This document shows, in pieces, positions 8,150 to 35,615 of a stretch of 64,000 bases of DNA (positions within the stretch are counted from its first letter, which is position 1; each line of letters starts with the position of its first letter). Location: positions 1 through 64,000 of the forward strand of contig CDROCS010006010.1 in NCBI GenBank assembly GCA_977020255.1, given 5' to 3'. The notes under the pieces were generated by a model that saw only the letters and a program-made list of their open reading frames with translations, was not told the origin of the DNA and searched no databases. Origin of the DNA: Obrimoposthia wandeli. Lineage: Eukaryota. Position numbers and translations under genes: made by a program.

Positions 8150-8235
8150 TACAACAATTTAAATAGAAAGAAAATTTAAGTTTAGGTAAAGAAGGGTTAG
8201 CACCCATATCTTTAACTGATTTTAGAAATAATTGT

Positions 8236-8565: not shown

Positions 8566-8759
8566 TTTAATAAAAAAGATTCAATTTAAATATTGTTTAT
8601 ATTCGAAGCCATTTAAGTTTTTTTATTTCTAACTACAGATTTGATTAATTTTTTCACTTCTTTTTCTTAATGATTCTTTTTTTTGATTTCTTAGATTTTT
8701 ACTTTACGTTTTACTATCAACTTTGTAAAAGGCATTGCGAATTTATTTTTATAATTGTT

Positions 8760-9280
8760 CTATATTTGTTTATAAACAGTTACTCCCTTAGAATTAAATA
8801 TGTCTGTTAAAACACGTAAATCATCTGGGCAAGCTTGTGTAAAGTCAATAAATATATACCCATGTGCTTGTTTAGCAGCAGCGTGGAATGAATCAACTAG
8901 AAAGTTCTTATTTTGAGGAAATGCCTGTCTGGCCACAAAATCAACAACTGTTTGATCTCTAGGATTTTTAAATAAGACTAAGTAATGTACATTAATATTT
9001 TTTGTTATATGGTGACGTCCTTGGTGAAACAGATTTTGCGTGATAAATATAACTGTTATTTCACGATGTCTTGCAATCTTTGTAAATAAATTATTAAAGT
9101 CCGATTCCTTGTTAGCCTCCTCATACAAATCATCAATTATTATTACATCTTCTTTTTTCAATCTTTCACACCAATTTGCATCAAATCCTTCAATAAATTT
9201 TATACCCTTCAACTTGCAAACTTCTGTTTTGGTTAACCCGCTTTCCCCTCCTCCACCATGATGCCAATAAATATTTTTTC
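8760..9280 (-). pseudogene. A32/FtsK-like packaging ATPase, 5'-truncated copy
   Basis: Walker B IIIDDL and ITQNLF...YLVLFKNPRD motifs; nearly identical to 11851-12318; Walker A missing. Confidence 0.9.
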
Positions 9281-9329
9281 TTAATGAAAAATTTTTTTGA
9301 TTTTTAGACTTTGCCTAAACATTTTACTA

Positions 9330-9682
9330 TCAACTTTTTAAAATAGTTACTCCCTTATAATTAAAGATATTTTTAGAACACGTAAATTATATGGGCAAGC
9401 TTGTATAAAGTCAATAATTATATTCCCGTGTGCTTGTTTAGCAGCATCATGGAATGAATCAAACAAACAGTTCTTATTTTAGGGAGATTCTTGTCTGACC
9501 ACGAAATATACAACAGTTTGATATCTAGGATTTATAAATAAAACTATGTAATGTACATTAAAATTTCTTGTTCTATGATGACCTTGGTGAAAAATATTTT
9601 GAGTGATAAATGTAACTGTTACTTCAAGATGTCTTCCAATATTTGTAAATAAACTATTAAAGTCCGATTCCTTGTTAGCTTC
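9330..9682 (-). pseudogene. C-terminal half of the outer (older) Maverick packaging ATPase, cut by the nested insertion
   Basis: EANKESDFNSLFTNIGRHLEVTVTFITQNIFHQG starts exactly at the TSD 9677-9682. The N-terminal half resumes at 22114. Confidence 0.85.
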
Positions 9683-9785
9683 AGTAGGTGGATGTGTCCG
9701 GTCTAATCCACACCCCCCTCTGTCCTTTAAAACCGTGTATGTGTGTGGAGTGAAATTTTGTGCATGTGTGTGGAGTGAAATTTCA
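9683..9785 (+). repeat. Left terminal inverted repeat of the Maverick
   Basis: About 100 bp matching the reverse complement of about 22010-22113, with mismatches. Confidence 0.9.
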
Positions 9786-10124
9786 TGTATGTGTCCATTC
9801 CATCCAAGGGGTAAGAAAGGGGTACCCTCACCCACCTCCATTTTAAAAATTTTACTGCGAATCTCAAAAGTGGTTAGAGAAAACCACGGGAATCCATATT
9901 TATTGGCCCCGGAGGCTTATCGCAGACGACATTTTAAATAATATATTACTACTATTTTTTAGAAAGATTTTAGTTTAATAAATTACTGCATGTTAAATAT
10001 CTATGTCAGTTTTAGAATTTCTAGGATAAAAAAATCGGTCAGATCTATATAATTTAGAGGAGAAAATACGAAAAAATGAATAAAACCGATTACAATTTAT
10101 TATATGCAAAATGAAAGAAAGAAG

Positions 10125-10607
10125 TTAAAACATAGAAATATGAGCACGTTCAATTTTCCACATAGGCAACTTTGTCCCCATTTCATCTTTCTTGTAACCA
10201 TAAAGTCGAATTGTTACAGTCCATTGCTTCTTTTTCGGAAACGCATCAATATCAACATATCTTCCATAGTCATCTAGAAATGCTTCATCGGGTCCTCGAA
10301 TATAAAATTCGTTTTTATTGAAAGTAAAATTCGGAACTGCCTTTTCAATTTTCTGGTGAAGATATTGAAAATCTGTTTTTTGAATATTTGATAGATAGTA
10401 GCTGAACTTTCTTCTTTCAATTGTCACAGGATTTACTAAAGCAATCAGTTGAGCCTTCTTCAAGAATCTGACTTTGTATTTGAAATATTGTTTTACTTCT
10501 TGATACATATCCTTATCCGATTCTTCAAATATTTCTAAATCTTCGTCACCGCTTAATACCCGTTGGCTATCCTCCATCGTTGATAATTGTCTTTGATATG
10601 AATGCAT
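10125..10607 (-). CDS. Maverick accessory protein X1 (160 aa, intact), possible OB-fold ssDNA-binding protein
   Basis: Uninterrupted ORF with homologs at 23386, 37078 and 49100. The C-terminal WTVTIRLYGY...PMWKIERA pattern suggests a viral SSB (inference only). Confidence 0.6.
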   Translation of the reverse strand: MHSYQRQLSTMEDSQRVLSGDEDLEIFEESDKDMYQEVKQYFKYKVRFLKKAQLIALVNPVTIERRKFSYYLSNIQKTDFQYLHQKIEKAVPNFTFNKNEFYIRGPDEAFLDDYGRYVDIDAFPKKKQWTVTIRLYGYKKDEMGTKLPMWKIERAHISMF

Positions 10608-10832
10608 TTACTGTGATTTGTCCTCCAATGGCGCATTCTTTTATACTAATTTCTAACAAAAACATGAATCTCATTGGTTAATATAACAAAAGCATTGATT
10701 GGACTAAATTTGATTGGAAGAAATTTTTCATTTAATTATATTAGGTTTGCAAGATAATTACAAGAAACGTGCAATAAAAAAGCAGATTCAGACATATATA
10801 AAGAAGATTTTACAGAATACAATTTCAGTCTA

Positions 10833-11334
10833 ATGAAACTCGTAAATATAAATTATAAAGGTAGAACAGAAGATGATGTTTCGTACTTACCATTCAATGA
10901 ATGGAAGCCGAGACAATATGAAAGAAAAAGTTTGACAATTTCACAGTTGTTATTTTTCCTACAGGTTAGTTTTTTATTTTATTTTCATATTGAATTCTTT
11001 AGGAAATTGTCATGTTATGGGATGCAAAATACCAATGCTTGGGTTCAATTTACCATTTGGAATTCAAATCACTGCAATACAATCAATCACGATTTCGGCT
11101 AATCTCGGGAAACAGATAAATCTTTTTAAAATTGCAGAGAAAATGAAAGAAGAATGCATCTTTGAACCAGAAATTTTTTCTGCTCTCAGTTATTTGAAGT
11201 TTAAACCGCTATGTGTAAATATATTTTCCAGTGGTAAAGTTATGATATTGGGATTGAAAAATTTTGATTATCCAGACATTGTTGAATTGATTTTAGAAAA
11301 TATATCTTATTACATCTTGTTATCTTTTCTATAA
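10833..11334 (+). pseudogene. TATA-binding-protein (TBP)-like gene, two repeats, one 38-nt intron (10965-11002), frameshift in exon 1
   Basis: Repeat 2: SANLGKQINLFKIAEK...FEPEIFSALSYLKFKPLCVNIFSSGKVMILGLK matches the TBP core. Splicing GTTAGT...TTTAG restores repeat 1, VVIFPTG|NCHVMGCK. An A-run length change near 10925 shifts the frame. Confidence 0.8.
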
Positions 11335-11353
11335 ACAAACCCGTTTAAACTTA

Positions 11354-11635
11354 TTGTTTCAAATGAATAATACTATAAATAGAGACAATGAATTGGATCG
11401 TCTTGCCGAGGAAATATTTTCTGGAAAAATTAGGGGTAAAGAAATTTTATCAGAATTAAAAAATAAAGATATAACAAGAGATAACATTGAAATATTGGTT
11501 AGATCACACGTTATTCGAGAATTTAGAAATCGTACACAAATAAATAAAATTATATCCAAATATTCATTAATTAATTTTTGTATTTCATCTACAATAGCTC
11601 TAACATTGTACATTTCAATAAGGAAACTTCTATGA
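11354..11635 (+). CDS. Small Maverick hypothetical protein
   Basis: Intact 93-aa ORF between TBP-like and ATPase, with positional homologs at 22519-22710 and 36211-36402. Confidence 0.6.
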   Translation: MFQMNNTINRDNELDRLAEEIFSGKIRGKEILSELKNKDITRDNIEILVRSHVIREFRNRTQINKIISKYSLINFCISSTIALTLYISIRKLL

Positions 11636-11673
11636 TAATATAAACAATATTTAAAAATGAAAGAGTATATGCA

Positions 11674-12318
11674 ATGGAGCTAAATAATAATGCTGTATTT
11701 CAAATAATTGGTCCCAGTGGAAGTGGAAAGACACATTTCGTATGTAAATTGTTGCAAAATGAATCTCTTTTCAAATGTAGTTTCAAACATATTTATTGGC
11801 ATCATAGTGGAGGAGGGGAAAGCGGATTAACCAAAACATAGGTTTGCAAGTTGAAGGGAATACAATTTATTGAAGGATTTGATGCAAATTGGTGTGAAAG
11901 ATTGAAAAAAGAAGATGTAATAATAATTGATGATTTGTATGAGGCTAACAAGGAATCGGACTTTAATAATTTATTTACAAAGATTGCAAGACATCGTGAA
12001 ATAACAGTTATATTTATCACTCAAAATCTGTTTCACCAAGGACGTCACTATAGAACAAGAAATCTTAATGTACATTACTTAGTTTTATTTAAAAATCCTA
12101 GAGATCAAACCGTTGTTGATTTTGTGGCCAGACAAGCATTTCCTCAAAATAAGAACTTTCTAGTTGATTCATTCCACGATGCTGCTAAACAAGCACATGG
12201 GTATATATTTATTGACTTTACACAAGCTTGCCCAGATGATTTACGTGTTTTAACAGACATATTTAATTCTAAGGGAGTAACTGTTTATAAACAAATAGAG
12301 AACAATTATAAAAAATAA
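11674..12318 (+). pseudogene. A32/FtsK-like DNA packaging ATPase with one in-frame stop
   Basis: ATG 11674, Walker A GPSGSGKT, Walker B IIIDDL, ITQN and FKNPRD motifs; TAG at 11839-11841. Confidence 0.95.
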
Positions 12319-12325
12319 ATTCGCA

Positions 12326-12466
12326 ATGCCTTTTACAAAGTTGATAGTAAAACGTAAAGTAAAATCTAAGAAATCAAAAAAAAGAATCATTAAGAAAAAA
12401 GAAGTGAAACAATTAATCAAATCTGTAGTTAAAAATAAAAAAAAACTTAAATGGCTTCGAATATAA
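12326..12466 (+). CDS. 46-aa Lys-rich basic peptide (candidate virion core/DNA-condensing protein)
   Basis: MPFTKLIVKRKVKSKKSKKRIIKKKEVKQLIKSVVKNKKKLKWLRI*, 21 of 46 residues K/R. Fills the gap between ATPase and pX-like; homolog at about 8590-8735. Confidence 0.55.
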   Translation: MPFTKLIVKRKVKSKKSKKRIIKKKEVKQLIKSVVKNKKKLKWLRI

Positions 12467-12497
12467 ACAATATTTAAATTAAACTTTTTTTATTAAA

Positions 12498-12827
12498 ATG
12501 AAGAAAATACAAAGAAGCATATCCTATTTTAAAGCTTTAGTCAAAGCCTCTTCTAATAAGAGAATGATTATTCTTAAAGCATTTCCATCCTTTGTTGTAG
12601 ATGATTTATTGGAAGTTTTGTATAATATAGTTTTGGGTCGAGTAAAAATTGGAAATCTGAAAAATATATTAAAGAAATATAGAAAAACTCTTCTAGATAT
12701 TGCTAATGTAAAAAGTAAAAAAAGGAAACGAAATATTATTCTTAAACAGAATGGTGGTTTCATAGGGGCTGTTATTCCAGTTGTTGCTTCAATTATCAGT
12801 AGTATTATAGCTGCGACACGTTCATAA
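12498..12827 (+). CDS. Conserved Maverick small structural protein resembling adenovirus pX (basic body, xGG cleavage site, hydrophobic tail)
   Basis: Intact 109 aa ending KQNGG|FIGAVIPVVASIISSII, comparable to adenoviral pX MRGG|ILPLLIPLIAAAI. Confidence 0.75.
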   Translation: MKKIQRSISYFKALVKASSNKRMIILKAFPSFVVDDLLEVLYNIVLGRVKIGNLKNILKKYRKTLLDIANVKSKKRKRNIILKQNGGFIGAVIPVVASIISSIIAATRS

Positions 12828-12913
12828 ACAATTATTTATAAAATCAGCTAAAGATATGGGTGCTAGCCCTTCTTTACCTAAATTTAAATTTTCTTTCAAT
12901 TCAAATTGTTGTA

Positions 12914-13937
12914 ATGGAGAAGATATGGTTCAATCCAAAAGATCCAATTGGCTACACAGGAGTTTTAAAATTAGCAAAAAGAACAAAACAAAATTACAAG
13001 AAAACGCAGAAATGGCTGAGCGACCAGTTAGCGTACAGTCTGAACAAGCCGATGAGAAGAAGGTTTTCAACTAGAGCTTACAAAACCAGCGGTCCTAATA
13101 ATTTATGGCAAATAGATTTGACGGAGATGATCCCATATTCTTCCATTAATAAGGGATATCGATATATTTTAACATGTATTGATGTATTTAGCAGGTTTGC
13201 TCGTGCAATTCCAGTAATAGCAAAGTCTTCAATATGCTTGAAGCCATTAAAGAAATATTAAAAGAGGACATTCCACAAAATGTGCAAACTGATTTAGGAA
13301 AAGAATTTTATAATAAGCAAATTCAATCATTATTTAAACAAAATAATATAAATCATTACTCTGTGTTTTCACAATACAAAGCAGCAGTAGTAGAAAGATT
13401 TAATCGTACTCTAAGAGATCGAATAAAAAGTATTTCACAAAAGAAGGAAATAAAAAATGGATCCAAGTTTTACCTAAAATAATACATGCATATAATCACT
13501 CTGAACATAGAGGTCTCAAGGGAATGAGACCTGTTGATGTTACTAATAAAAACTCTATGGACATTTGGATGAACAGGAATAAAAAAGAAAATATTAAAAA
13601 AGCTAAATATAAGAAAAACGAATATGTTCGAATTTCGAAAAATAGCTCTACTCCATTTATTAAAAACTTTGATCAGAATTGGAGCGATGAAATATTTTGT
13701 ATAAGTAAAATTGATCAAAAGAGTAATCCAATAATGTATACTATTAAAGATGCTGACAATAATATCGTTCACGGTAAATTTTACGAGCAAGAACTACAAG
13801 TAATATCAAATAAACCTAGCGTTTTCCGTATTCAAAAAATATTTAAATCTAAGGGTACAGGTAAACATAAACAATACTTTGTTAAATGGCATGGTTATTC
13901 AGACCCAACTTGGATATCAGCATCTAATATAATATGA
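12914..13937 (+). pseudogene. Retroviral-like (rve) integrase with C-terminal chromodomain; two frameshifts
   Basis: DDE motifs WQIDL, QTDLGKEF, VVERFNRTL; chromodomain YFVKWHGY. Split across ORFs 12860, 13234 and 13524. Confidence 0.95.
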
Positions 13938-14976
13938 AGTCTATGTATATGGTTTTACCTAGTAACGGATGTCCGAAGACTCAACCAGATAATTACGCTA
14001 GTAGCTTTATTATCGATTGGGAAGGAGAATGGGAAGCGGCTTTAATCAAATTTTCTTTTTATTATTCTCCAATTACTATCAGAAAAAACTCACATATTTC
14101 GTTTACAAAAGAAGTTGATCATGAAAAAGCAACTAAAGTTGTGATCATGTTTGATAGTAAAGGAAAATTCTTTTACAATTGTATAGATAAAGAAGTGAAA
14201 GTAATATATGAAAAAAACAAAGTCAGATTTAAAAATCGATCAAAACATTTTCAACCTATTCAAATTATATTCGAATCTGGAAGAGAAGCTCTTCAATTCG
14301 GTCTTGATAGTGGACATGTAGTAGGTATGAAGAGATCTGATATTGTCTCATCAAAATTGTTTAAAAATGTTCCTAGTAGAGTGGTAAGAGTGTTGTTAGT
14401 TGAAACGAGACCAAATACTGTAGTGGAACTGAAAATGTTTTCAAAAGATTATAAAATAGATAGTGAAGTGAATTTCTGTAAATTAATACAGAAGGAATGT
14501 AGTGAATATTTGGATAAATGTGAAACATTAAAAAATGGTAAAATAACGTTTACAGTAAAAAGCAATATAAAACGAGTTTCATTTGATGATAAAATCGCTA
14601 AAAACCTTGGTTTAAACAGAAATACCTTTGAAACCATACAATAAAAACCATAAAAGCTAAAAATAAGGCAAAACTTTTAAATGCTGTTAATCATTTATAT
14701 ATTTATACTAATTTAATAGAACCAACGCTTGTAGGAGGACAGCGAGTTCCACTTTTGAGAACAATATGGATATCTAAAAATGAAACTAAAGATGGTGACG
14801 CTGTCGGTATGTGTATAGATCAACCAATGTATCTTCCAGTTTCTCTCTTTTCTATAAACAATATTGAAGTAAATATTAGAGATGATTCCGGACAACTAAT
14901 AGATTTCACGTACGGGGCCAAGACAAGTTTAACAATACATTTAAGAATACAAAATGACGAATCTAGCAATAATTGA
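13934..14976 (+). pseudogene. Minor capsid protein (penton-like, single jelly-roll), frameshifted
   Basis: N-terminal YMVLPSN...DN..SSF..WEAAL and C-terminal YTNLIEPTLVGGQRVPLLR...MYLPV...IEVNIRDDSGQLIDF...LTIHLR motifs. Confidence 0.85.
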
Positions 14977-15320
14977 GGCTTATAGTCAAAGCCAACAAAG
15001 TGGAGAATTACCATATTTTGTTGGCAAACAATATGGATCTGGCTGGCTTAGAACATTAGGTAGATATTTAAAAGAGACTCGGACATTTTATATCAAAATT
15101 AGGAAAGGATTACCTTTCGTCTAATGACAATAAACTAATACCAACTTTTAAGAAGCATGGGCTTGATGAACTTGATAATGTTTAACCTGAAGTTGCTAAT
15201 TTGATTAGAAAACGTAAATCAAATAAAAGACAAGGAGGTAGTGGATTTAAAAGTAAAAAGAAGCAAAAAATTAATATAAACAAACGTAAGAAAGTTGAAG
15301 GAACAATATTTGCAAAATGA
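14954..15320 (+). pseudogene. pVI/cupiennin-like amphipathic protein upstream of the capsid gene, frameshifted
   Basis: ELPYFVGKQYGSGWLRTLGR...KRQGGSGFKSKK...GTIFAK*; its TGA overlaps the capsid ATG. Confidence 0.65.
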
Positions 15321-16546
15321 GTTGCGCCAAAACCGAATTGTGTATTTTTGATAAACCACTTCCACAAGTAGTTGTAGATAATACTTCCTTTGAAGAAATA
15401 TTTCTAGTTAACTCACTTTCAGGAACCACTTTAACCGAATTAGAATTTAATATGAATGGTTCCAATAGCGAGTATTTAGATTTGAATGATACTTTGCTTT
15501 ATATTCAAATAAAAGTATTAAAACGGGATGTTACTAATTTAGATGAAAATGCCGATGTAACACCTGTAAATTATCTCTTTAATTCTTTATTTAGTGATGC
15601 CATTGTTACTCTTAATAATGTCAAAATTGAAGGTGGAAATTCTTCCTATGCTCATAAAGCTTTGATTGAAAGTCTTTTGAATTATAGTACTGATACTCAA
15701 AATACTAATTTGGCAACCATTGGTTATGATAAAACGGTCGCAACTCGCAAAGAATCGATTACAGGTTCTAAAGCTTACGAAATGTGTGGGTCTTTGAGAT
15801 TGAATTTCTTTGAATAACCGAAATATTTAATTCCTGGTGTTAATGTACATCTTCGTTTGAAACTTAATAAATGGCATTTTTCTTTGATAAGCACAGACGT
15901 TCTAAAACCTAGACTTGATATTTTGAATGCAAAATTGTATGTTCGAAGAGTTAAAACCGAGCAATCAGTTTTAATGGCACATAATATAGGAATGGAAAAA
16001 AACAATGCTTATTATCCTATTAGAGAAACTAAACTTATATCTTATTCTTTAGGTACGGGTACACAAGCTTTTAATAAGGATCAGATTTTTGGTGATGTAA
16101 GATTACCGAAATTCATTTTAATTTCTTTTCAAAAAACTGCAAAGTATCTAGGAAATTATACGACAGATGCACCTCAATTTGACAATCTTTATGTAGGTTC
16201 AGTGACACTTTCAAGAAATACTGATTATCGCAAAACATATAAAACAGATTTCGAAGGTAATGCTTATGCTTTGGCTTATACGCAATCTATTATTCGGAAT
16301 TTGGGCCAACTAGATAAAAATATAAACAATGGTATTTCTTTCACTGAGTTTAAAAGTAGCTGCCAGTTCTTCACATTCGTTTTGGCACCAGACTTTGATA
16401 TAAACCAATGCCAACTACCAAAGGATGGAAATTTACGACTAGAATTTAAGTTCAATGCAGCTTTAACACATCCTACTACGGTGCTTATTTATGGAGTGTT
16501 TGATTCCGAAATACAAATCAATAAAAACAGAACTGTCATATTATAG
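15317..16546 (+). pseudogene. Major capsid protein (double jelly-roll, hexon-like) with one in-frame stop
   Basis: MSCAKTELCIF...EF.MNGS.SEYLDLNDTLLY motif. TAA at 15815-15817, then the same frame continues (PKYLIPGVNVHLRL...FTFVLAPD...GNLRLEFKF). Confidence 0.93.
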
Positions 16547-16547
16547 A

Positions 16548-16938
16548 ATGAAGTAAGACATTTTTTAAATTTATATTTATTAATTTTTATTTAGTTCAGT
16601 ATAAGTATAAGAATCAGCAGAGAAGGTCCTGGGTGATAAATTCAATGGAGTTTATCCTATTGATATGAATCCAATTTTTCAATATGGAGGTTACACTATC
16701 AATACTCATACTTCGAATTAAACAGAAGAACATTGGATAGCTATTTATGTTAGAGAGTGGACAATACATGTATTTGATCCACTTGCAATGTATTATCCAC
16801 AAAACTCGTTTCAACTATTCAAAAAGGACGAAGAAGAGTATTTTACAACAAGATACAATATCAGGATCCTGAGACGAGAAACTGTGGACATTTATGTATT
16901 TTATAGTTATCGTTGCAAAACGATTAGTGTGTTATAAA
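16548..16938 (+). pseudogene. Adenain-like cysteine protease with a 42-nt intron (16553-16594), disrupted
   Basis: ATG AA|GTAAGA...TTTAG|T gives MNS... Catalytic motifs EHW, FDP and Q...NCG are present across stops and a frameshift. Confidence 0.85.
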
Positions 16939-17178
16939 AATAAATATTTTTAATTTTTTTTTAAATCCCTAAAAATATAAGGGTAAAATAATAAAAGACA
17001 TTAGACGAAATTTCTTTTTAATACATTTATTAAAAACAACATCACAGTGAGATCTATCAGCAAAGATAAGGTCCATCCTAAAAAATGTATTGAAATAACA
17101 AAAAGTTAGAGTCAAGGTGCCATAGGGATCTAAAATTTTAAAAAACTAATCTAAAAAAATTCAAAAAATGAAAACCGT

Positions 17179-17694
17179 TTAAATTCTGAAGTGTCCATAA
17201 GCCAGGCTAACGTTTTTTTCTACCCAAAAGCGCTTGTCGTCATTACTACTCAAAGTGATTTTGGTTGATTTATGGGAATACAGTTGATGGGCTCTTGAAA
17301 TAAATCTAGTTTGCTCAACACTTTCAATACACCCAGTATCGTAAACTTTCCGGTAGGTCTCATGTGTAAAATTGTTTCTTCCCACACCCTTTGCTTTCAT
17401 TGAACATGTATTATTAGATGCATGTAAACTGTAGCATTTAGGGCGTAGGAAAATACAATCATCATACGAAACCTGTCCCTCGCTTTCATCCTTAAATTTC
17501 CCGATAATATCCTTTAAACTCATAGAATGTAGAGGATGGTTAGCGGGATATTTATGGGTATCTAATAAGTTGTCCCTAAACATTGCCGGTAATAATTGAT
17601 TATATAAACTAACATTCCTGTATTCTAAAAAGAAAGAGTCAGTGTCAGTGTAAACGGGTTGAATCACTGCCACTGGAATTGGAGCAGGTGAGGC
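17179..17694 (-). pseudogene. pPolB C-terminal fragment (motif C to thumb)
   Basis: YTDTDSFF, GKFKDE, FLRPKCYS, KAKGV, DDKR motifs. The exonuclease and N-terminal regions are absent. Confidence 0.92.
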
Positions 17695-18194
17695 CTATGA
17701 ATCGCGCACCAATTGCACGATATCCCTCTTCTTGTTGTTGGCCGTGAAACAGGATAGGTGAACTCGATGTTCAAGAAAGAAGTCTCGAAACTCCTTCTCC
17801 TCCATTGTTCTGCAGAAGATACAGACGAATAATTGAAGCCCGCGAGACTTTGTCCGATAGTAGGCGGACATTATCTCCATGCAGGTCTCTCCTCCATGCA
17901 AAGCCGAAGCACCACAATATGCTGGAAACAGGATACAAGTAATATGAAATAATAAATATTAATAAAGAAATAATAAGTATAGATTCTTACCATAGTCATT
18001 ATTTCAAATAGTCGGGGATTTTAATGAAGAAAGTGTTTGCTTATATACTAAAATTTATGCACACATGCTCTTTTCCTATTGGATTAAAAAATTGAATTTT
18101 ATTAAGAAGGATTGTTTATCTGTTAAATGGTCGAAAAAAAAAATTTTATTCCTCCAATCAAAAGAATTATTTGTAATTGAATTAGAAGAATTGT

Positions 18195-18683
18195 TTATCT
18201 ACATGTCAAGTAATAATAAGATAGACTTAAACATTTTTTATATGCGTAATGGTCACCATGATTACGATATGGACAGCAAATATTTCCTGGAATTTTTAAT
18301 AGATGATCACGTGAAATATTTAAAGTATTCAACCTCAATTTGGGAAAATAATTTTTTAAAGTCTTATACTTTTTGCCATTTATTTCATCTAAAACATAAA
18401 AAATTCCATTTTAAATATCAAAATTATATTTTATTGTTTCGAAAATGCATATTTCACAAAAAGCCATATGTCCTTCTTTCCATTTTAATAAATGAAAATA
18501 ATTAGTTAGATATAAATTAGTAAATTTTTTCTTATAATCTAAACTTTTAAACGGGATATATATTTGAAATATGAAATGCAAAGGATTAAAAATGTTGCAT
18601 ACATCCATAATACATAATTCTTTTATAATATAATCACCATTTTTGTTAATGAAAGCCTCAAAATCTATGATATATTCCTGCAT
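18195..18683 (-). pseudogene. Maverick accessory gene with DEDD-nuclease-like N-terminus and Cys/His C-terminus, frameshifted
   Basis: IIDFEAF...IIKEL, then in another frame FYVLDEINGKK...ICCPYRNHGDH(Y/C)AYKKC*. Homologs at 32527-33015 and 59485-59690. Confidence 0.65.
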
Positions 18684-18867
18684 AATTATCTAAATTTGCA
18701 GCAAATCCCGTTGTTTATAACGAAAATAATCATTAATCAAAAATTTATTAAAATAACAAAGTACTCAGGATTCAGTCTTTCATGTTAATATTGGTATATA
18801 TTGTCAATTCTCTTATGAATATTAAAATAAATTATATTAAATGTAAACATACCTAAATATTTCGAAA

Positions 18868-19050
18868 TTAAATTACATAATTTATCTCCAACAATTTCCA
18901 CAGTATCATTTTCTGAAAAGTAATTTTTTTATAATCTTCCATTAAATCTGGAGATAATTTTATGTATAACTTATTCCAATTTTTATTATCCATTTTACAA
19001 AATACATTATATATAATTTTGTTTATATTTAGACAATAATGTAACATAAT
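18868..19050 (-). CDS. Small Maverick hypothetical ORF
   Basis: Open in both duplicate copies (33200-33406); function unknown. Confidence 0.35.
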   Translation of the reverse strand: MMLHYCLNINKIIYNVFCKMDNKNWNKLYIKLSPDLMEDYKKITFQKMILWKLLEINYVI

Positions 19051-19078
19051 CAATAAAGAAAAAATAATAATCAAAATT

Positions 19079-19384
19079 TTATTTTTTTGTAGAAGGACCC
19101 TCTTCCGGTTTAATCTGGAGTATTCTCTTTCTTGCAGTACGCCGAACATCCTCCATCTCTTCTCTTCTTTTTTCATCCACCTTCCTTTTTTCCATTTCGA
19201 TCTTCTTATTCCATTCCACGATGCGACGTCGTTCTGCAAGCCTCCTATCTTGTATATCCACCCGACGATTCCACTCGGTCGCGACAGCAGTATACAGATT
19301 CTGATTAAGGACCCTCTTTCTTAAGTCCCCTTTCTTCTCATTTATTCTGATGTTTGCTTCAATCTTCGTCACCAGACTCTTCAT
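19079..19384 (-). CDS. Charged coiled-coil-like Maverick protein (101 aa)
   Basis: Intact in both copies (33412-33717); E/K/R-rich helical composition. Confidence 0.6.
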   Translation of the reverse strand: MKSLVTKIEANIRINEKKGDLRKRVLNQNLYTAVATEWNRRVDIQDRRLAERRRIVEWNKKIEMEKRKVDEKRREEMEDVRRTARKRILQIKPEEGPSTKK

Positions 19385-19616
19385 TTTAATGAATTCATTT
19401 TTTAATTATGAAGAGGTTAATAAATTTGAACCTATATATATAAATTTAAGATATTTTTTAATCTAATTAAACTATATATTTTTATTTATCAAATGAGTGT
19501 TTAATAAATATATAACTTATCATTGCATTTAAACCTAATAAACTTAAAGATAGTATTTTAATATTTCTAAATTTAAATTTTTTTAAAAATAAATTTTAAG
19601 AAGAAAAGACATGAAA

Positions 19617-20820
19617 TTAATTTTTATAAATTATATTCTTAAACATCTTTACGAAGTCATCATTAGGATCATCCGGATCGAAATCCCTCCGACTAAGTAT
19701 TATTGGAGAAAGCGGTACTGGCTCTTTCTTCTTTGGCCGTCCTGGTTTCTTTTTCGGCTTCACAGGTTGTTGTACAGCAATTGTCCTTATCTCAGGTTAG
19801 CAACCTTTGGGAGGAGGTGCAGCCGATGTTGAGGGCCCCGACATAGAAGTCCTCTTCCGTGGGGCTTTCTTCTGTTTCTCCTCCTTCTCACGCTGAAGCT
19901 GGCGTGAAACGGCATCCTGTTGCCCTCGCGAATCTTGAAGCATTGCCGGTGTATACTGTTCCGCCAGGAATTCATCCAACCCAGCTTCATCCCAGGCCCT
20001 CTTCAAGTTCTGACTGGTTGTTGGAGATGCAGTCTCCCAAGCCTTGGTCAAATTTGATGTCTCCTGTAGGCGTCGTTGACTTGACGGTGGACTAATCTCG
20101 ATCGGTGAGACTGAGATCCTCTCGTATAGAATTGGCCCGTCGTCCACTGGAGATGAGAGAATATCCTGCCGTCCAATCACCGTCTCAGAAGAATGTTGAA
20201 TTGAGGTGCTACATTTTCTCGAGCGCTTCGTCTTCTTCACTTCTGCTCGCTTCGTCCGTTTCTTGGGGAAAAGAGTAATTTCTCCCCATGTCTCCTCAAT
20301 TATCTGGACGGGTTCCTGCAAAATATTAATAAAATTTAAATAAATAAATAATTTACCTCAATGACGGGCAGGTTAGCCTGTTTCACCAACTTGGCCTTCT
20401 TCCGAGTGTGGGTTTTGACCCTATGGCGTTGTGGTTTCTTAACTGCCGCTTGCTTCCTATCCACCGGTTGAATAGGCGTCGGCTCTTCGTGGATGTTTTC
20501 CATCTATGTGAATTATTAAATTTAATATCTAAATAATTTACATTAAAATTATCTGGAGACGCTAGGTATCGGAGCTGACTCCTGAATCCTTGGTTCTTCT
20601 CTTGGAGTTGAGCTGGCCAATGAGGCTTCTTCTTCCAACAGGTTCGCTCTTGCTGCTGCTTTTCCTTCGCTCACCACCGATGAGTCTTGACTATCTAAGT
20701 CAATGTATTGCAACGGTGGTGGCGTTTGCTGCTGCACTGGAAAGAGATCCCCATAGAGTTGAACATCCGAAGGGGCGGGTGGTGTAGGTTTTGGGTATGA
20801 CACGGGTCGTCTACAAGTGT
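19617..20820 (-). pseudogene. Intron-containing, disordered Maverick protein with a C-terminal AT-hook
   Basis: The 41-nt GT-AG intron 20316-20356 joins ...LPVIE|EPVQII in frame. Candidate 38-nt intron at 20504-20541. KKKPGRPKKK at about 19725-19755, reached via a frameshift. Confidence 0.6.
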
Positions 20821-20829
20821 AGTCACCCA

Positions 20830-21900
20830 CCACCCACCGACTTACACCTACCACCCACCGACTTTCACCCAACACCCATCGACTTTCACCCACCACCCAA
20901 CACCCACCGACTTTCAACCACCACTCATTGACTTACACCAACCACCCACCTACTTTCACTCATCACCCACCGACTTATACCTACCACCCACCGACTTTCA
21001 CCCAACACCCATCGACTTTCACCCACCACCCAACACCCACCGACTTTCACCCACCACTCATTGACTTACACCTACCACCCACGACTTACACCCACCACCC
21101 ACCAATTTATCCCCACCACCCACCGACTTTCACCCATCACCCAACGACTTTCACCCATCACCCACCGACTTACACCCATCACCCAACGACTTTCACCCAA
21201 CACCCACCGACTTTCACCCAACACCCCCGACTTTCACCCACCACCCAACACCCGTCAACTTTCACCCATCACCCACCGACTTTCACCCATCACCCAACGA
21301 CTTTCCGCCAACATCCAACGACTTTCACCCAACACCCACCGACTTTCATCCACCACCCCCGACTTTCACCCACCACCCAAAACCCGTCGACTTTCACCCA
21401 TCACCCACCGACTTTCACCCATCACCCAACGACTTTCACCCATCACCCACCGACTTACACCCATCACCCAACGACTTTCACCCAACACCCACCGACTTTC
21501 ACCCAACACCCCCGACTTTCACCCACCACCCAACACCCGTCAACTTTCACCCATCACCCACCGACTTTCACCCATCACCCAACGACTTTCAGCCAACATC
21601 CAACGACTTTCACCCAACACCCACCGACTTTCACCCACCACCCCGACTTTCACCCACCACCCAAAACCCGTCGACTTTCACCCATCACCCACCGACTTTC
21701 ACCCATCACCCAACCGACTTTCACCCATCACCCAACGACTTTCACCCAACGACTTTCACCCAACACCCACCGACTTTCACCCAACACCCCCGACTTTCAC
21801 CCACCACCCAACACCCGTCAACTTTCACCCATCACCCACCGACTTTCACCCATCACCCAACGACTTTCAGCCAACATCCAACGACTTACACCCACCGTCT
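20830..21900. repeat. C/A-rich subterminal minisatellite (about 21-bp unit, CACCCACCGACTTTCACCC core)
   Basis: Direct inspection; about 450 bp in the duplicate copy (35165-35615). Confidence 0.95.
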
Positions 21901-21970
21901 AACACCCAACACCCATGGAAATATGTGATATTGGCTCCATCCGAAAGGCGCGAAAAATGTTTTTGGGACC

Positions 21971-22113
21971 CCCCCTTGTCCTTTAAAACCGTGCATGTGT
22001 GTGGAGCAAAATTTCACTCCACACACCTACAGGAAATTTTACTCCACACACTTGCACGGTTTTATAGGACAGAGGGGAAGGGGTGAGGATTAGACCAGAC
22101 ACATCCACCTACT
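21971..22113 (-). repeat. Right TIR of the Maverick with an internal hairpin
   Basis: Ends ...CATCCACCTACT, followed by the TSD. Two arms of about 37 bp (21978-22014 and 22034-22070) are reverse complements. Confidence 0.9.
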
Positions 22114-22389
22114 AGCTTCCTGTTACAAATCATCAATTATTATTACATCTTCTTTTTTCAATCTTTCACACCAATTCGCATCAAATCCTTCAATAAATTT
22201 TATTCCCTTCAACTTGCAAACGTATGTTTGGGTTAATCCACTTTCACCTCCTTCACCATAATGCCAATAAATATTTTTGAAACTAGAATTGAAAATAGAT
22301 TCATTTTGCAACAATTTACATACGAATTGTGTCTTTCCACTTCTACTGGGACCAACTATTTGAAATACAGAATTATTATTTAGCTCCAT
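22114..22389 (-). pseudogene. N-terminal half of the outer packaging ATPase
   Basis: MELNNNSVFQIVGPSRSGKT...IIIDDL*; contiguous with 9330-9682 once the insert and one TSD copy are removed. Confidence 0.9.
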
Positions 22390-22732
22390 TACATATACTC
22401 TTTCATATTTAATATTGTTTGTATTATCATAGAAGTTTCCTTATTTAAAATTATAATGCCAGATCTACAGTAGATGAAATACAAAAATTAATTAATGAAT
22501 ATTTGGCTATAATTTTATTTATTTGCGTTCGATTTCTAAATTCTCGAATAACGTGTGATCTAACCAATATTTCAATATTATTTCTTGTTGTATCATTATT
22601 TTTTTAATTCTGATAAAATTTGTTTCACCTCTATTTTTCCTGAAAAAAAATTCGTAGACAAGAGAATCCACTTCATTGTCGATATTTATAGTATAATTCA
22701 TTTGAAACAATTATTAATTGAAATAGGTTTGT

Positions 22733-23215
22733 TTATAGAAAAGATAACAAATTGTAATAAAATATATTTTCTAAAATCGATTCAAGAGTGTATTGATAAT
22801 TCAAATTTTTCAATCCCAAGACCAAAACTTTACTACCAGAAAATATTTTTACACATGGCAGTGTAAGCTTCAAATACCTGAGAGCAGGAAAATTTTCATA
22901 TTCAAACATGCATTCTTCTTTCATTTTCTCTGCAATTTTATAAAGATTTACTGGTTTCCCGATATGTATTTGATATTATGAAAATTGATTTTAATTCCAA
23001 ATGGTAAATTGATCTCATTCAGCGGTGTTATGCATCCCATAACACGACACTTCCTAAATAAATTCAATATGAAAATGAAATAAAAACTAACCTGAAAAAA
23101 ACCCTGTGAAACCATCAAACATTTTCACATATTGTTTCGGCTTCCAATCATTGAATGGTACGTGCAAAATATAATCTTTTATTCTTCCTTTATAATTTAT
23201 TATTACGGGTTTCAT
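22733..23215 (-). pseudogene. TBP-like gene of the outer element, same 38-nt intron (23054-23091)
   Basis: MKPVIINYKG...FTGFFSG| exon 1 is in frame; exon 2 is frameshifted; FEYENFPALRYLKL..CVKIFSGSKVLVLGLK. Confidence 0.75.
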
Positions 23216-23385
23216 TAGACTAAAATAGTTTTTCTGTAAATTCTTCTTTACATATGTCTGAACCTGCTTTTTATTGCACAATTCTTTTAAATATTTTGCA
23301 AATATGGATTTAGTTCAATCAAATTCAATAGTTTAGTTATGTTAATCAATGAGATTTATGTCTTTCATACAATTTAATAAAAAAA

Positions 23386-27170: not shown

Positions 27171-27180
27171 TAGGCCTTGC

Positions 27181-28799: not shown

Positions 28800-29308
28800 A
28801 ATAATGATTTTTCTTGAATGAAAGAACTTCAAAGGGACCTTTAAAATGCGATTGATTGTTTGCTCCATTTCTTCCACATCGATTTTGATACATCAAGCTA
28901 ACTTTGTCGCCAATCTTATTTTCAAAATTGGTTGTCTCAAGGTCGACAATCTCATCTCAAATGTTAATCATGGAATGGACCCAATCATTATATGATACGT
29001 CTTCATTAGGGTTACCTGGGCATTTTGAAGTGCAAAATTTGTGTACGAATTGAAATTAAAATAGGGTGTAAAACATCTGGCAAAAGATTCTACTACCCTC
29101 TTTCCCATTATTCGATTGTTCCTCTCTGTCAGTATGTTAGCCTGCTCCTGAAACACTGATGCTACTGGCTGTTGACTCTTTCAGAAATGCTGCTCACAAA
29201 TTCTCCTCCATGATCATTGATCTGAACATCTACAGCACATGAATGTCTACATACAATATATTCGAATATAAATTCCATAACCAAATCCGCAGTCTCATCC
29301 CTAATGCT
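28800..29308 (-). pseudogene. Ty3/Gypsy-type integrase remnant, truncated at the duplication junction
   Basis: INDHGGEFVSSIS, QANILTERNNR and KTYHIMIGSIP resemble the rve core (xDQGxEF, QxNGxxERxN, TPYxLMxGRxP). Confidence 0.7.
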
Positions 29309-29650
29309 GAGGCTTATAGTCAAAGCCAACCAGGTGGAGAATTACCATATTTTGTTTGTACACAATATGGATCTGGCTGGCTTAGAACATTAGGTAGATA
29401 TTTAAAAGAGACTCGGACATTTTATATCAAAATTAGGAAAGGATTACCTTTCGTCTAATGACAATAAACTAATACCAACTTTTAAGAAGCATGGGCTTGA
29501 TGAACTTGATAATGTTTTACCTGAAGTTGCTAATTTGATTAGAAAACGTAAATCAAATAAAAGCCAAGGAGGTAGTGGATTTAAAAGTAAAAAGAAGCAA
29601 AAAATTAATATAAACAAACGTAAGAAAGTTGAAGGAACAATATTTGCAAA

Positions 29651-30879
29651 ATGAGTTGCGCCAAAACCGAATTGTGTATTTTTGATAAACCTCTTCTACA
29701 AGTAGTTGTAGATAATGCTTCCTTTGAAGAAATATTTCTAGTTAACTCACTTTCAGGAACCACTTTAACCGAATTAGAATTTAATATGAATGGTTCCAAT
29801 AGCGAGTATTTAGATTTGAATGATACTTTGCTTTATGTTCAAATAAAAGTATTAAAACGGGATGGTACTAATTTAGATGAAAATGCCGATGTAACACTTG
29901 TAAATTATCTCTTTAATTCTTTATTTAGTGATGCCATTGTTACTCTTAATAATGTCAAAATTGAAGGTGGAAATTCTTCCTATGCTCATAAAGCTTTGAT
30001 TGAAAGTCTTTTGAATTATAGTACTGATACTCAAAATACTAATTTGGCAACCATTGGTTATGATAAAACGGTCGCAACTCGCAAAGAATGGATTACAGGT
30101 TCTAAAGCTTACGAAATATGTGGGTCTTTGAGATTGAATTTCTTTGAATAACCGAAATATTTAATTCCTGGTGTTAATGTACATCTTCGTTTGCAACGTA
30201 ATAAATGGCATTTTTCTTTGATAAGCACAGACGTTCTAAAACCTAGACTTGATGTTTTGAATGCAAAATTGTATGTTCGAAGAGTTAAAACCGAGCAATC
30301 AGTTTTAATGGCACATAATATATGAATGGAAAAAAACAATGCTTGTTATCCTATTAGAGAAACTAAACTTATATCTTATTCTTTAGGTACGGGTACACAA
30401 ACTTTTAATAAGGATCAGATTTTTGGTGATGTAAGATTACCGAAATTCATTTTAATTTCTTTTCAAAAAACTGCAAAGTATCTAGGAAATTATACGACAG
30501 ATGCACCTCAATTTGACAATCTTAATGTAGGTTCAGTGACACTTTCAAGAAATACTGATTATCGCAAAACATATAAAACAGATTTCGAAGGTAATGCTTA
30601 TGCTTTGGCTTATACGCAATCTATTATTTGGAATTTGGGCCAACTAGATAAAAATATAAACATTGGTATTTCTTTCACTGAGTCTAAAATCAGCTGCCTG
30701 TTCTTCACATTTGTTTTGGCACCAGACTTTGATATAAACCAATGCCAACTACCAAAGGATGGGAATTTACGACTAGAATTAAGTTCAATGCAGCTTTAAC
30801 ACATCCTACTACGGTGCTTATTTATGGAGTGTTTGATTCCGAAATACAAATCAATAAAAACAGAACTGTCATATTATAG
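29651..30879 (+). pseudogene. Major capsid protein, duplicate copy
   Basis: Shares the TAA at 30149-30151 and adds TGA at 30323-30325 plus a frameshift near 30780. Confidence 0.92.
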
Positions 30880-30880
30880 A

Positions 30881-31270
30881 ATGAAGTAAGACATTTTTTA
30901 AATTTATATTTATTAATTTTTATTTAGTTCAGTATAAGTATAAGAATCAGCAGAGAAGGTCCTGGGTGATAAATTCAATGGAGTTTATCCTATTGATATG
31001 AATCCAATTTTTCAATATGGAGGTTACACTATCAATACTCATACTTCGAATTTACCAGGAGAACATTGGATAGCTATTTATGTTAGAGAGTGGACAATAC
31101 ATGTATTTGATCCACTTGCAATGTATTATCCACAAAACTCGTTTCAACTATTCAAAAAGGACAAAGAAGAGTATTTTACAACAAGATACAATATCAGGAT
31201 CCTGATACGAGAAACTGTGGACATTTATGTATTTTATGGTTATCGTTGCAAAACGATTAGTGTGTTATAA
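30881..31270 (+). pseudogene. Adenain-like protease, duplicate copy (42-nt intron 30886-30927)
   Basis: NLPGEHWIAIY...VFDPL; same intron and stops as copy 1. Confidence 0.85.
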
Positions 31271-31510
31271 AAATAAATATTTTTAATTTTTTTTTAAATC
31301 CCTAAAAATATAAGGGTAAAATAATAAAAGACATTAGACGAAATTTTGTTTAATACATTTATTAAAAACAACATCACAGTGAGATCTGTCAGCAAAGATA
31401 AGGTCCATCCTAAAAAATGTATTGAAATAACAAAAAGTTAGAGTCAAGGTGCCATAGGGATCTAAAATTTTAAAAAACTAATCTAAAAAAATTCAAAAAA
31501 TGAAAACCGT

Positions 31511-32026
31511 TTAAATTCTGAAGTGTCCATAAGCCAGGCTAGCGTTTTTTTCTACCCAAAAGCGCTTGTCGTCATTACTACTCAAAGTGATTTTGGTTGA
31601 TTTATGGGAATACAGTTGATGGGCTCTTGAAATAAATCTAGTTTGCTCAACACTTTCAATACACCCAGTATCGTAAACTTTCCGGTAGGTCTCATGTGTA
31701 AAATTGTTTCTTTCCACACCCTTTGCTTTCATTGAACATGTATTATTAGATGCATGTAAACTGTGGCATTTAGGGCGTAGGAAAATACAATCATCATACG
31801 AAACCTGTCCCTCGCTTTCATCCTTAAATTTCCCGATAATATCTTTTAAACTCATAGAATGTAGAGGATGGTTAGCGGGATATTTATGGGTATCTAATAA
31901 GTTGTCCCTAAACATTGCCGGTAATAATTGATTATATAAACTAACATTCCTGTATTCTAAAAAGAAAGAGTCAGTGTCAGTGTAAACGGGTTGAATCACT
32001 GCAACTGGAATTGGAGCAGGTGAGGC
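31511..32026 (-). pseudogene. pPolB C-terminal fragment, duplicate copy
   Basis: YTDTDSFF...KAKGV...DDKR. Confidence 0.9.
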
Positions 32027-32526
32027 CTATGAATCGCGCACCAATTGCACGATATCCCTCTTCTTGTTGTTGGCCGTGAAACAGGATAGGTGAACTCGAT
32101 GTTCAAGAAAGAAGTCTCGAAACTCCTTCTCCTCCATTGTTCTGCAGAAGATACAGACGAAGAATTGAAGCCCGCGAGACTTTGTCCGCTAGTAGGCGGA
32201 CATTATCTCCATGCAGGTCTCTCCTCCATGCGAAGCCAAAGCACCACAATATGCTGGAAACAGGATACAAGTAATATGAAATAATAAATATTAATAAAGA
32301 AATAATAAGTATAGATTCTTACCATAGTCATTATTTCAAATAGTCGGGGATTTTAATGAAGAAAGTGTTTGCTTATATACTAAAATTTATGCACACATGC
32401 TCTTTTCCTATTGGATTAAAAAATTGAATTTTATTAAGAAGGATTGTTTATCTGTTAAAAGGTTGAAAAAAAATTTTTTATTCCTCCAATCAAAAGAATT
32501 ATTTGTAATTGAATTAGAAGAATTGT

Positions 32527-33015
32527 TTATCTACATGTCAAGTAATAATAAGATAGACTTAAACATTTTTTATATGCGCAATGGTCACCATGATTACGAT
32601 ATGGACAGCAAATATTTCCTGGAATTTTTAATAGATGATCACGTGAAATATTTAAAGTATTCAACCTCAATTTGGGAAAATAATTTTTTAAAGTCTTATA
32701 CTTTTTGACATCCATTTCATCTAAAACATAAAAAATTCCATTTTAAATATCAAAATTATATTTTATTGTTTCGAAAATGCATATTTCACAAAAAGCCATA
32801 TGTCCTTCTTTCCATTTTAATAAATGAAAATAATTAGTTAGATATAAATTAGTAAATTTTTTCTTATAATCTAAACTTTTAAACGGGATATATATTTGAA
32901 ATATGAAATGCAAAGGATTAAAAATGTTGCATACATCCATAATACATAATTCTTTTATAATATAATCACCATTTTTGTTAATGAAAGCCTCAAAATCTAT
33001 GATATATTCCTGCAT
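32527..33015 (-). pseudogene. DEDD-like / Cys-His accessory gene, duplicate copy
   Basis: ORFs 32743-33015 and 32527-32715. Confidence 0.65.
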
Positions 33016-33411
33016 AATTATCTAAATTTGCAGCAAATCCCGTTGTTTATAACGAAAATAATCATTAATCAAAAATTTATTAAAATAACAAAGTGCTCAG
33101 GATTCAGTCTTTCATGTTAATATTGGTATATATTGTCAATTCTCTTATGAATATTAAAATAAATTATATTAAATGTAAACATACCTAAATATTTCGAAAT
33201 TAAATTACATAATTTATCTCCAACAATTTCCACAGTATCATTTTCTGAAAAGTAATTTTTTTATAATCTTCCATTAAATCTGGAGATAATTTTATGTATA
33301 ACTTATTCCAATTTTTATTATCCATTTTACAAAATACATTATATATAATTTTGTTTATATTTAGACAATTATGTAACATAATCAATAAAGAAAAAATAAT
33401 AATCAAAAATT

Positions 33412-33717
33412 TTATTTTTTTGTAGAAGGACCCTCTTCCGGTTTAATCTGGAGTATTCTCTTTCTTGCAGTACGCCGAACATCCTCCATCTCTTCTCTTC
33501 TTTTTTCATCCACCTTCCTTTTTTCCATTTCGATCTTCTTATTCCATTCCACGATGCGACGTCGTTCTGCTAGCCTCCTATCTTGTATATCCACCCGACG
33601 ATTCCACTCGGTCGCGACAACAATATACAGATTCTGATTAAGGACCCTCTTTCTTAAGTCCCCTTTCTTCTCATTTATTCTGATGTTTGCTTCAATTTTC
33701 GTTACCAGACTCTTCAT
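33412..33717 (-). CDS. Coiled-coil-like Maverick protein, duplicate copy
   Basis: Intact 101 aa, two substitutions versus 19079-19384. Confidence 0.6.
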   Translation of the reverse strand: MKSLVTKIEANIRINEKKGDLRKRVLNQNLYIVVATEWNRRVDIQDRRLAERRRIVEWNKKIEMEKRKVDEKRREEMEDVRRTARKRILQIKPEEGPSTKK

Positions 33718-33949
33718 TTTAATGAATTCATTTTTTAATTATGAAGAGGTTAATAAATTTGAACCTATATATATAAATTTAAGATATTTTTTAATCTAAT
33801 TAAACTATATATTTTTATTTATCAAATGAGAGTTTAATAAATATATAACTTATCATTGCATTTAAACCTAATAAACTTAAAGATAGTATTTTAATATTTC
33901 TAAATTTAAATTTTTTTAAAAATAAATTTTAAGAAGAAAAGACATGAAA

Positions 33950-35160
33950 TTAATTTTTATAAATTATATTCTTAAACATCTTTAAGTCATCATTAGGATC
34001 ATCCGGATCGAAATCCCTCCGGCTAAGTATTATTGGAGAAAGCGGTACTGGCTCTTTCTTCTTTGGCCGTCCTGGTTTCTTTTTCGGCTTCACAGGTTGT
34101 TGTACAGCAATTGTCCTTATCTCAGGTTAGCAACTTTTTGGGAGGAGGTGCAGCCGATGTTGAGGGCCCCGACATAGAAGTCCTCTTCCGTGGGGCTTTC
34201 TTCTGTTTCTCCTCCTTCTCACGCTGAAGCTGGCGTGAAACGGCATCCTGTTGCCCTCGCGAATCTTGAAGCATTGCCGGTGTATACAGTTCCGCCAGGA
34301 ATTCATCCAACCCAGCTTCATCCCAGGCCCTCTTCAAGTTCTGACTGGTTGTTGGAGATGCAGTCTCCCAAGCCTTGGTCAAATTTGATGTCTCCTGTAG
34401 GCGTCGTTGACTTGACGGTGGACTAATCTCGATCGGTGAGACTGAGATCCTCTCGTATAGAATTGGCCCGTCGTCCACTGGAGATGAGAGAATCTCCTGC
34501 CGTCCAATCACCGTCTCAGAAGAATGTTGAATTGAGGTGCTACATTTTTTCGAGCGCTTCGTCTTCTTCACCTCTGCTCACTTCGTCCGTTTCTTGGGGA
34601 AAAGAGTAATTTCTCCCCATGTCTCCTCAATTATCTAGACGGGTTCCTGCAAAATATTAATAAAATGTAAATAAATAAATAATTTACCTCAATGACGGGC
34701 AGGTTAGCCTGTTTCACCAACTTGGCCTTCTTCCGAGTGTGGGTTTTGACCCGATGGCGTTGCGGTTTCTTAACTGCCGCTTGCTTCCTATCCACCGGTT
34801 GAATAGGCGTCGGCTCTTCGTGGATGTTCTCCATCTATGTGAATTATTAAATTTAATATCTAAATAATTTACATTAAAATTATCTGGAGACGCTAGGTAT
34901 CGGAGCTGACTCCTGACTCCTTGGTTCTTCTCTTGGAGTTGAGCTGGCCAATGAGGCTTCTTCTTCCAACAGGTTCGCTCTTGCTGCTGCTTTTCCTTCG
35001 CTCACCACCGATGAGTCTTGACTATCTAAGTCAATGTATTGCAACGGTGGTGGCGTTTGCTGCTGCACTGGAAAGAGATCCCCATAGAGTTGAACATCCG
35101 AAGGGGCGAGTGGTATATGTTAGGGTCTTGGGTATGACACGGGTCGTCTACAAGTGTAGT
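33950..35160 (-). pseudogene. AT-hook protein gene, duplicate copy (41-nt intron 34647-34687)
   Basis: Colinear with 19617-20820. Confidence 0.6.
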
Positions 35161-35164
35161 CACC

Positions 35165-35615
35165 CACCACCCACCGACTTACACCTACCACCCACCGACT
35201 TTCACCCAACACCCATCGACTTTCACCCACCACCCAACACCCACCGACTTTCAACCACCACTCATTGACTTACACCAACCACCCACCTACTTTCACCCAT
35301 CACCCACCGACTTATACCTACCACCCACCGACTTTCACCCAACACCCATCGACTTTCACCCACCACCCAACACCCACCGAGTTTCACCCACCACTCATTG
35401 ACTTACACCTACCACCCACGACTTACACCCACCACCCACCAATTTATCCCCACCACCCACTGACTTTCACCCATCACCCGTCGACTTTCACCCATCACCC
35501 ACCGACTTTCACCCATCACCCAACGACTTTCAGCCATCACCCACCGACTTTCACCCATCACCCAACGACTTTCAGCCAACATCCAACGACTTACACCCAC
35601 CGTCCAACACCCAAC
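35165..35615. repeat. C/A-rich subterminal minisatellite, shorter copy
   Basis: Same unit as 20830-21900. Confidence 0.95.

Follow-up and report, generated by a model that had tools for sequence, protein, structure and literature searches.

Introduction

Intact vertebrate Mavericks lack introns according to the available text of one study (PMC8097293), and for a nematode Maverick the accessible part of the report describes intronless core genes beside cargo genes that have introns (bioRxiv 10.1101/2022.07.12.499685). A protist survey, in the sections at hand, assumed that endogenous viruses have no introns (PMC10120064), and no word starting with 'splic' occurs in the adintovirus paper (PMC8502044). 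For polinton-like viruses, the portions of the literature available to us report introners in dinoflagellates (PMC12166617) and group I introns in cryptophytes (PMC12220804). Validated GT-AG introns as short as 35 nucleotides (nt) in Tribolium, 39 nt in C. elegans and 40 nt in Drosophila are given in the excerpted text of PMC4675715. Here, we analysed a stretch of 64,000 nt from Obrimoposthia wandeli (assembly GCA_977020255.1, contig CDROCS010006010.1, positions 1 to 64,000; hereafter the window), which contains a decayed Maverick/Polinton copy of 12.4 kb with internal deletions (9683..22113, no strand assigned). We propose that several of its genes, including that of an adenovirus-like cysteine protease, quite probably contain ordinary GT-AG spliceosomal introns, which the Maverick lineage likely gained in its own genes and whose length likely corresponds to the minimum of the host spliceosome (about 35-50 nt, predicted).

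Candidate introns in the Maverick copy

A sequence-only reading of the window had pointed to five intervals of 38, 42, 69, 41 and 38 nt as introns or candidate introns, and had called those of 38-42 nt ultra-short. All five were found where they had been placed, with GT and AG ends and an A+T content of 80-90%, and each has the donor context and the pyrimidine-rich acceptor context expected of U2-type introns. The splice motif alone is weak in such A+T-rich DNA, so that a comparative test was needed: strict candidates of 33-50 nt number four in the element against a mean of 1.6 in shuffled sequence, and 11 of 200 shuffles reach four. This count, being near chance, was given no role as support. 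Comparison with homologues was more informative, since removal of the interval keeps the frame and restores the match to intronless homologues in the TBP-like and protease genes; the other three intervals were compared with intron-bearing relatives only. We consider it very probable that the five intervals are true introns, and homology with relatives thus makes the presence of spliceosomal introns in Maverick genes, as first proposed, a probable one. Other A+T-rich GT-AG candidates (e.g. 18389-18457 and 19041-19092) were without homology support where checked, and are not claimed.

A predicted intron at the start of the protease gene

The first exon of the protease gene (16548..16552, plus strand) consists of the start codon and two further nucleotides and begins one base past the capsid stop, a layout found in all eight intron-bearing loci compared. 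It is followed by a 42-nt phase-2 predicted intron (16553..16594, plus strand), at a site common to relatives, and by a second exon (16595..16934, plus strand) that carries stops and frameshifts in the window copy and is recognized as a protease through PF00770 in its homologues. Of eight homologues tested, three score above the PF00770 cut-off and a fourth exactly at it; the sibling exon gives E=0.027, and a PDB sequence search with the protease exon gave no meaningful match. In three loci of the genome (L331, L301, L302) we also observed that the start codon of the protease and the stop codon of the capsid gene overlap, the intron starting one base past the end of the capsid gene.

The interval lies two bases past the start codon in all 30 family copies examined, with both GT and AG intact in 27 of them, and it recurs at the same site in other families. 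Altogether, eight loci, representing five sequence groups in the genome and two metagenome contigs, have a predicted intron at the start codon plus two nucleotides, with variable interiors and lengths of 39 nt (L128), 48 nt (L129), 33 nt (L301), 36 nt (L302) and 40 nt (L331) in the genome and of 37 nt (L229) and 39 nt (L245) in the metagenome. Among these intron-bearing proteases, exon 2 is 44-57% identical to that of the window family where measured. The site is not occupied throughout, as among 11 metagenome loci with a protease match seven have an in-frame ATG without the interval, two have the intron and two are cut short. In a tree of 53 proteases, all seven intron-bearing rows fall in one 17-row group, which includes none of the six verified intronless rows.

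The N-terminus of the encoded protein points in the same direction. Once the interval is removed, a conserved aromatic-x-Gly motif is as far from the start as is usual in this protein. We compared 151 database homologues: of the 127 that bear the motif, 114 have it at position 15-21 or closer to the start, and 96 have it at 15-21, of which 34 have Asn, the commonest second residue. Left unspliced, the gene reads Met-Lys-stop, as had been pointed out for the window copy, and the same holds for all eight intron-bearing loci. Because of this stop the protease cannot come from the unspliced message, and its production would depend on splicing. However, Met-Lys-stop arises from the GTAA donor itself and is therefore no evidence of regulation.

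One could suppose instead that the intervals are A+T-rich spacers or decay insertions which are never spliced, and that the protease starts downstream or from a distant exon. The copy is indeed heavily decayed, with numerous stops, frameshifts and deletions, its motif counts barely exceed those of the shuffles, and a Met is available about 23 codons into exon 2. Nevertheless, that Met lies past the aromatic-x-Gly motif, which a start there would lose; position, phase, GT and AG are retained across families and metagenome contigs whose interiors vary, and the unspliced TBP-like interval would shift the frame inside a conserved motif. We thus regard the unspliced alternative as very improbable.

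Open reading frame (ORF)-based annotation had been predicted to fragment or miss such genes, and does mishandle them: of the 15 closest database proteases (P0161-P0175), eight start internally or with an intron-like extension. Four have an internal Met as start (P0161, P0163, P0167, P0175) and four an N-terminal extension rich in F/L/I/Y that resembles a read-through intron (P0162, P0164, P0165, P0174). A bolder idea would be that a clade of animal Mavericks, hidden by ORF-based annotation, gained this intron once and gates its virion-maturation protease by splicing, the spliceosome serving as a late-gene or tissue switch; we hold this to be doubtful.

The TBP-like gene

The TBP-like gene (10833..11334, plus strand; PF00352, E=8.5e-12, with full-length relatives) comprises two exons separated by a 38-nt phase-1 predicted intron (10965..11002, plus strand). 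The interval splits a conserved IF-x-S/T-G motif and shifts the frame within it. Introns occupy the same site in L075 (39 nt), L077 (38 nt), L129 (71 nt, including a grown microsatellite) and the metagenome locus L267 (40 nt), so that the intron is common to four families in the genome and one metagenome contig. Across 20 element loci (L061-L080), seven belong to the window family and have a 39-40-nt interval, two belong to divergent families with intervals of 39 and 38 nt and of different sequence, nine represent an intronless family and two are uninformative. A spliced profile alignment, run blind with a lower intron limit of 20 nt, found the intron in L071, L075, L077, L129 and L267, always in one phase and at one position of the profile, and found none in L064. 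Outside the genome the intron is rare: of 75 metagenome relatives spanning the site, among the best 80 of 134, L267 has the 40-nt intron and 74 are without it. The counts leave out six weakly flanked intron calls scattered over metagenome TBP-like loci. A scan of viral_contigs with the TBP-like protein found no relative.

The host TBP loci (L051, L052) read through the first-repeat motif without an intron, which makes a gain in the element lineage the simpler reading; the TBP-like intron was thus likely gained there. An origin from introner-type transposons inserted after integration, as in dinoflagellate polinton-like viruses, deserves mention here, since introners have been published for eupolintoviral elements (PMC12166617, in the part available) and the intronless family shows at the TBP-like site an AG|GT, a typical insertion context. 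On the other hand, the introns are fixed in whole families and common to several families and genomes, and must therefore pre-date the integration of these copies. Compared by eye, with no introner-family test made, they share little except splice signals and A+T richness. Introner insertion therefore seems scarcely credible to us, and we retain gain within the Maverick lineage.

Apart from this question, the two host TBP paralogues (G000:C238) are neighbours in head-to-head orientation within about 1.2 kb, and an intron of 47-48 nt is predicted in each. The truncated TBP-like gene (about 145 amino acids) is itself a regular, very high-copy part of these Mavericks (19,768 candidates, 150 scored) and occurs in many metagenome relatives; as regards animal Polintons, our literature search revealed no work on this gene. 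In related Mavericks of the genome it is adjoined by genes for a dual-specificity phosphatase (PF00782) and BIR-domain proteins (PF00653) (L128:7309-7746, L128:9267-9899, L126:7654-8466).

The minus-strand genes

Three further predicted introns, all of phase 0, lie on the minus strand. The first, of 69 nt (17922..17990), is found immediately after the start codon in a small gene rich in Cys; it has a 43-nt counterpart after the ATG in L128 and no equivalent in L130, and its GT and AG are intact in 28 of 30 copies. The other two are in an AT-hook-like accessory gene. The 41-nt interval (20316..20356) has counterparts of 47 and 72 nt in L126, at a matching, duplicated exon boundary, with both ends intact in 29 of 30 copies, and the 38-nt interval (20504..20541) has a 44-nt counterpart in L126 and intact ends in all 30 copies. 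The exon upstream of the latter is truncated in the window copy by a deletion near 20583, and the copy has lost by deletion a further upstream intron that the three siblings shown retain (44 nt in L163). These minus-strand introns, which rest on intron-bearing relatives only, are less secure than those of the protease and TBP-like genes.

Intron length in the element and its host

The sequence-only reading had held the element introns to be shorter than those of the neighbouring host gene, whose shortest were given as 47, 61, 61 and 62 nt. These host introns exist (50351-50397, 27284-27344, 43522-43582 and 61775-61836), although the two of 61 nt are a single intron doubled by a tandem duplication. 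Four introns, three of them distinct, from one gene are too small a sample for the comparison, which does not stand, as the predicted minimal class of the host begins at about 35 nt. We mapped host introns with the same spliced aligner in 15 myosin and 18 kinesin loci, having left out eight overlapping or near-identical loci before counting, and kept those that had a GT donor, could not be read through and were flanked by at least 8 bits on either side, a filter passed by 73 of 156 calls (83 dropped). A search with the host myosin gave no close named relative, the listed hits being at 60-67% apart from one outlier at 40%. Of these 73 predicted introns, 8 measure 35-42 nt, 19 at most 50 nt and 27 at most 70 nt, the shortest being 35, 36, 38, 39, 39, 40, 40 and 42 nt. 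Several of the short introns occupy positions common to myosin paralogues, and at one such position the lengths are 36, 39, 43, 48 and 91 nt in different paralogues. A length of 38-42 nt is thus within the predicted minimal class of the host, and the element does not have a class of its own below it. Since the element introns match the shortest introns of the host, size alone is no pointer to a special viral compaction. Nor does the tight size class first claimed for the element hold: the same sites hold introns of 48, 71 and 72 nt in other families, and the siblings of the 38-nt TBP-like intron have 39-40 nt in seven of seven loci elsewhere in the genome.

How such introns might arise and persist can be outlined as follows. 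The element would be transcribed in the nucleus by the host RNA polymerase II and its introns removed by the host U2 spliceosome. Polintons are copied from DNA to DNA by a protein-primed PolB, so that an intron, once gained, is inherited. Selection on active elements would then preserve the splice ends and let the interior drift. The element introns probably stay short as young gains in short-lived, size-limited elements without large insertions, which is the weakest step of the proposal.

Several observations weigh against this account of ordinary, lineage-gained introns at the host minimum. Element and host introns alike are inferences from homology. The conservation of GT and AG among family copies has little power, the copies being 94-98% identical, and was given little weight. 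For the TBP-like gene of the window copy, the spliced aligner settled on another donor-acceptor pair, owing to a frameshift 5' of the intron. The 17-row protease group is weakly supported (84/38) and contains a full-length database protein (P0173), which is why a single gain of the protease intron is plausible rather than established. Concerning length, the host sample covers 33 loci of two gene families, and one element intron, of 33 nt, is below the shortest confident host call of 35 nt. All 22 element introns measure at most 72 nt; counted by site, 6 of 6 are at most 75 nt, compared with 27 of the 73 in the host (Fisher p=0.004). The median is 40.5 nt in the element and 48 nt among host introns of at most 100 nt (p=0.003 for all 22, p=0.086 for the six sites).

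These last figures also favour the idea, already put forward by the sequence-only reading, that these are true introns which selection for compactness of the packaged genome keeps shorter than is normal in the host, the element encoding capsid, ATPase and protease genes. The idea survives only in a weak form, an excess of short introns by the site counts, and the shift within the short class is not significant at the level of sites. Moreover, the host has predicted introns of 35-42 nt, lengths of 48, 69, 71 and 72 nt are tolerated at the element sites, in part through microsatellite growth, and tens of bases would be saved out of more than 12 kb, whereas full intron loss, viable in relatives, saves more. 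The comparison is also biased, as our search favoured short introns in the element and long host introns were truncated by locus size. Compaction of this kind appears rather improbable to us, and it would add little, because the host appears to splice such sizes routinely; the data nevertheless leave room for a mild length constraint on the element introns. We thus prefer ordinary introns whose length likely reflects the host minimum.

Organization of the element and its surroundings

The copy has the features of a Maverick: terminal inverted repeats, a 6-bp target-site duplication, an RVE integrase, a packaging ATPase, a capsid and an adenovirus-like protease. The left terminal inverted repeat (9683..9906, plus strand) and its partner (about 21912-22113) are identical at 161 of 189 aligned bases, and the element is flanked by an identical hexamer (9677..9682, plus strand; right copy 22114-22119). 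The packaging ATPase (11644..12318, plus strand), interrupted by a stop, matches PF04665 weakly, its homologue in L130 being above the cut-off. The frameshifted region of the RVE integrase with chromodomain (12842..13937, plus strand) matches PF00665 (E=1.3e-6, in one of three integrase pieces) and PF00385, both below the curated cut-off. The stop-interrupted major capsid protein (15299..16546, plus strand) went unrecognized by Pfam and is likely a double jelly-roll according to Atlas feature matches of 0.95-0.97. The clusters matched contain PF21738 (18% of members) and PF04451 (10% and 75%), with a recognition score below the tool threshold, so that this likely assignment is a lead and not a fold. 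On the minus strand, a C-terminal remnant of the protein-primed PolB (17179..17650) was located by tblastn to the polymerase region of L130, whose adjoining ORFs match PF03175 above the cut-off; most of the gene is deleted in the window copy, and sibling copies align only beyond about 17650. The family has many members: a 651-base probe yielded 1545 candidates, of which the 40 scored all have at least 96% identity.

The flanks of the element match the ATPase region, and it is inserted in that gene of an older Maverick copy in inverted orientation. This older copy (7200-9682 and 22114-23400), split by the insertion, is 83-92% identical and also has a 38-nt TBP-like intron. Self-BLAST revealed a 98%-identical duplicate of 14974-21249 at 29308..35587 (plus strand), which carries four of the five introns. 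It is part of a tandem duplication of about 14-16 kb (14974-29308 / 29308-45545), real or an assembly effect, in which the right part of the Maverick was copied together with the 3' end of the host gene and its coding exon of 66-nt repeats. Read by eye, this host gene (24638-62100, minus strand) seems to encode a single-pass receptor, with several exons resembling fibronectin type III and a long tail of acidic 22-residue repeats, and a PolB-like fragment with inverted repeats seems to lie within one of its introns (58200-60600). Elsewhere in the genome, about 20 single-frame ORFs (about 550 amino acids) matching Cpn60/TCP1 are scattered beyond the usual CCT set (L036-L049 and further loci).

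Comparison with known systems

The point worth keeping is the position-conserved predicted intron in a core virion gene, present in several Maverick families and in metagenome contigs. In our literature search we came across no report of a Maverick protease with a spliceosomal intron; the first descriptions of these elements (Kapitonov and Jurka 2006, Pritham 2007), Repbase, PMC11426020 and supplements lay outside it, and a prior mention is possible. If these introns are spliced, some animal Mavericks would rely on transcription in the nucleus and on the spliceosome of the host even to express a core virion gene, contrary to the working assumption that such elements are intronless. Surveys based on prokaryotic gene callers, or scoring intactness by open ORFs, would truncate or discard the lineage, and intron presence or absence among families could provide markers of gain and loss in a virus-like DNA element.

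By its terminal inverted repeats, 6-bp duplication, RVE integrase, ATPase, capsid and adenovirus-like protease, and with a C-terminal remnant of a protein-primed PolB, the element resembles the animal Mavericks/Polintons of the adintovirus/eupolintovirus type. It differs in that core genes are reported as intronless there, a trait that is no formal criterion, whereas the protease of the window family has a conserved predicted intron. Validated animal introns of 30-40 nt have been published (PMC4675715); in this host, 35-50 nt looks like a common class instead of a rare extreme. With the dinoflagellate introners the window element shares spliceosomal introns inside polinton-type elements, but in the accessible part of that work these are mostly transposon insertions made after integration (PMC12166617), unlike the lineage-fixed and position-conserved introns described here. 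The nematode Mavericks also harbour intron-bearing genes, namely the cargo genes wasp/msft-1 and krma kinases (bioRxiv 10.1101/2022.07.12.499685, available portion), and the window element has a comparable region near one end, with a GC-rich, multi-intron AT-hook-like gene. Nevertheless, the nematode cargo consists of captured host genes, whereas here a core gene, that of the protease, has a predicted intron, and the intron of the TBP-like gene was likely gained within the element.

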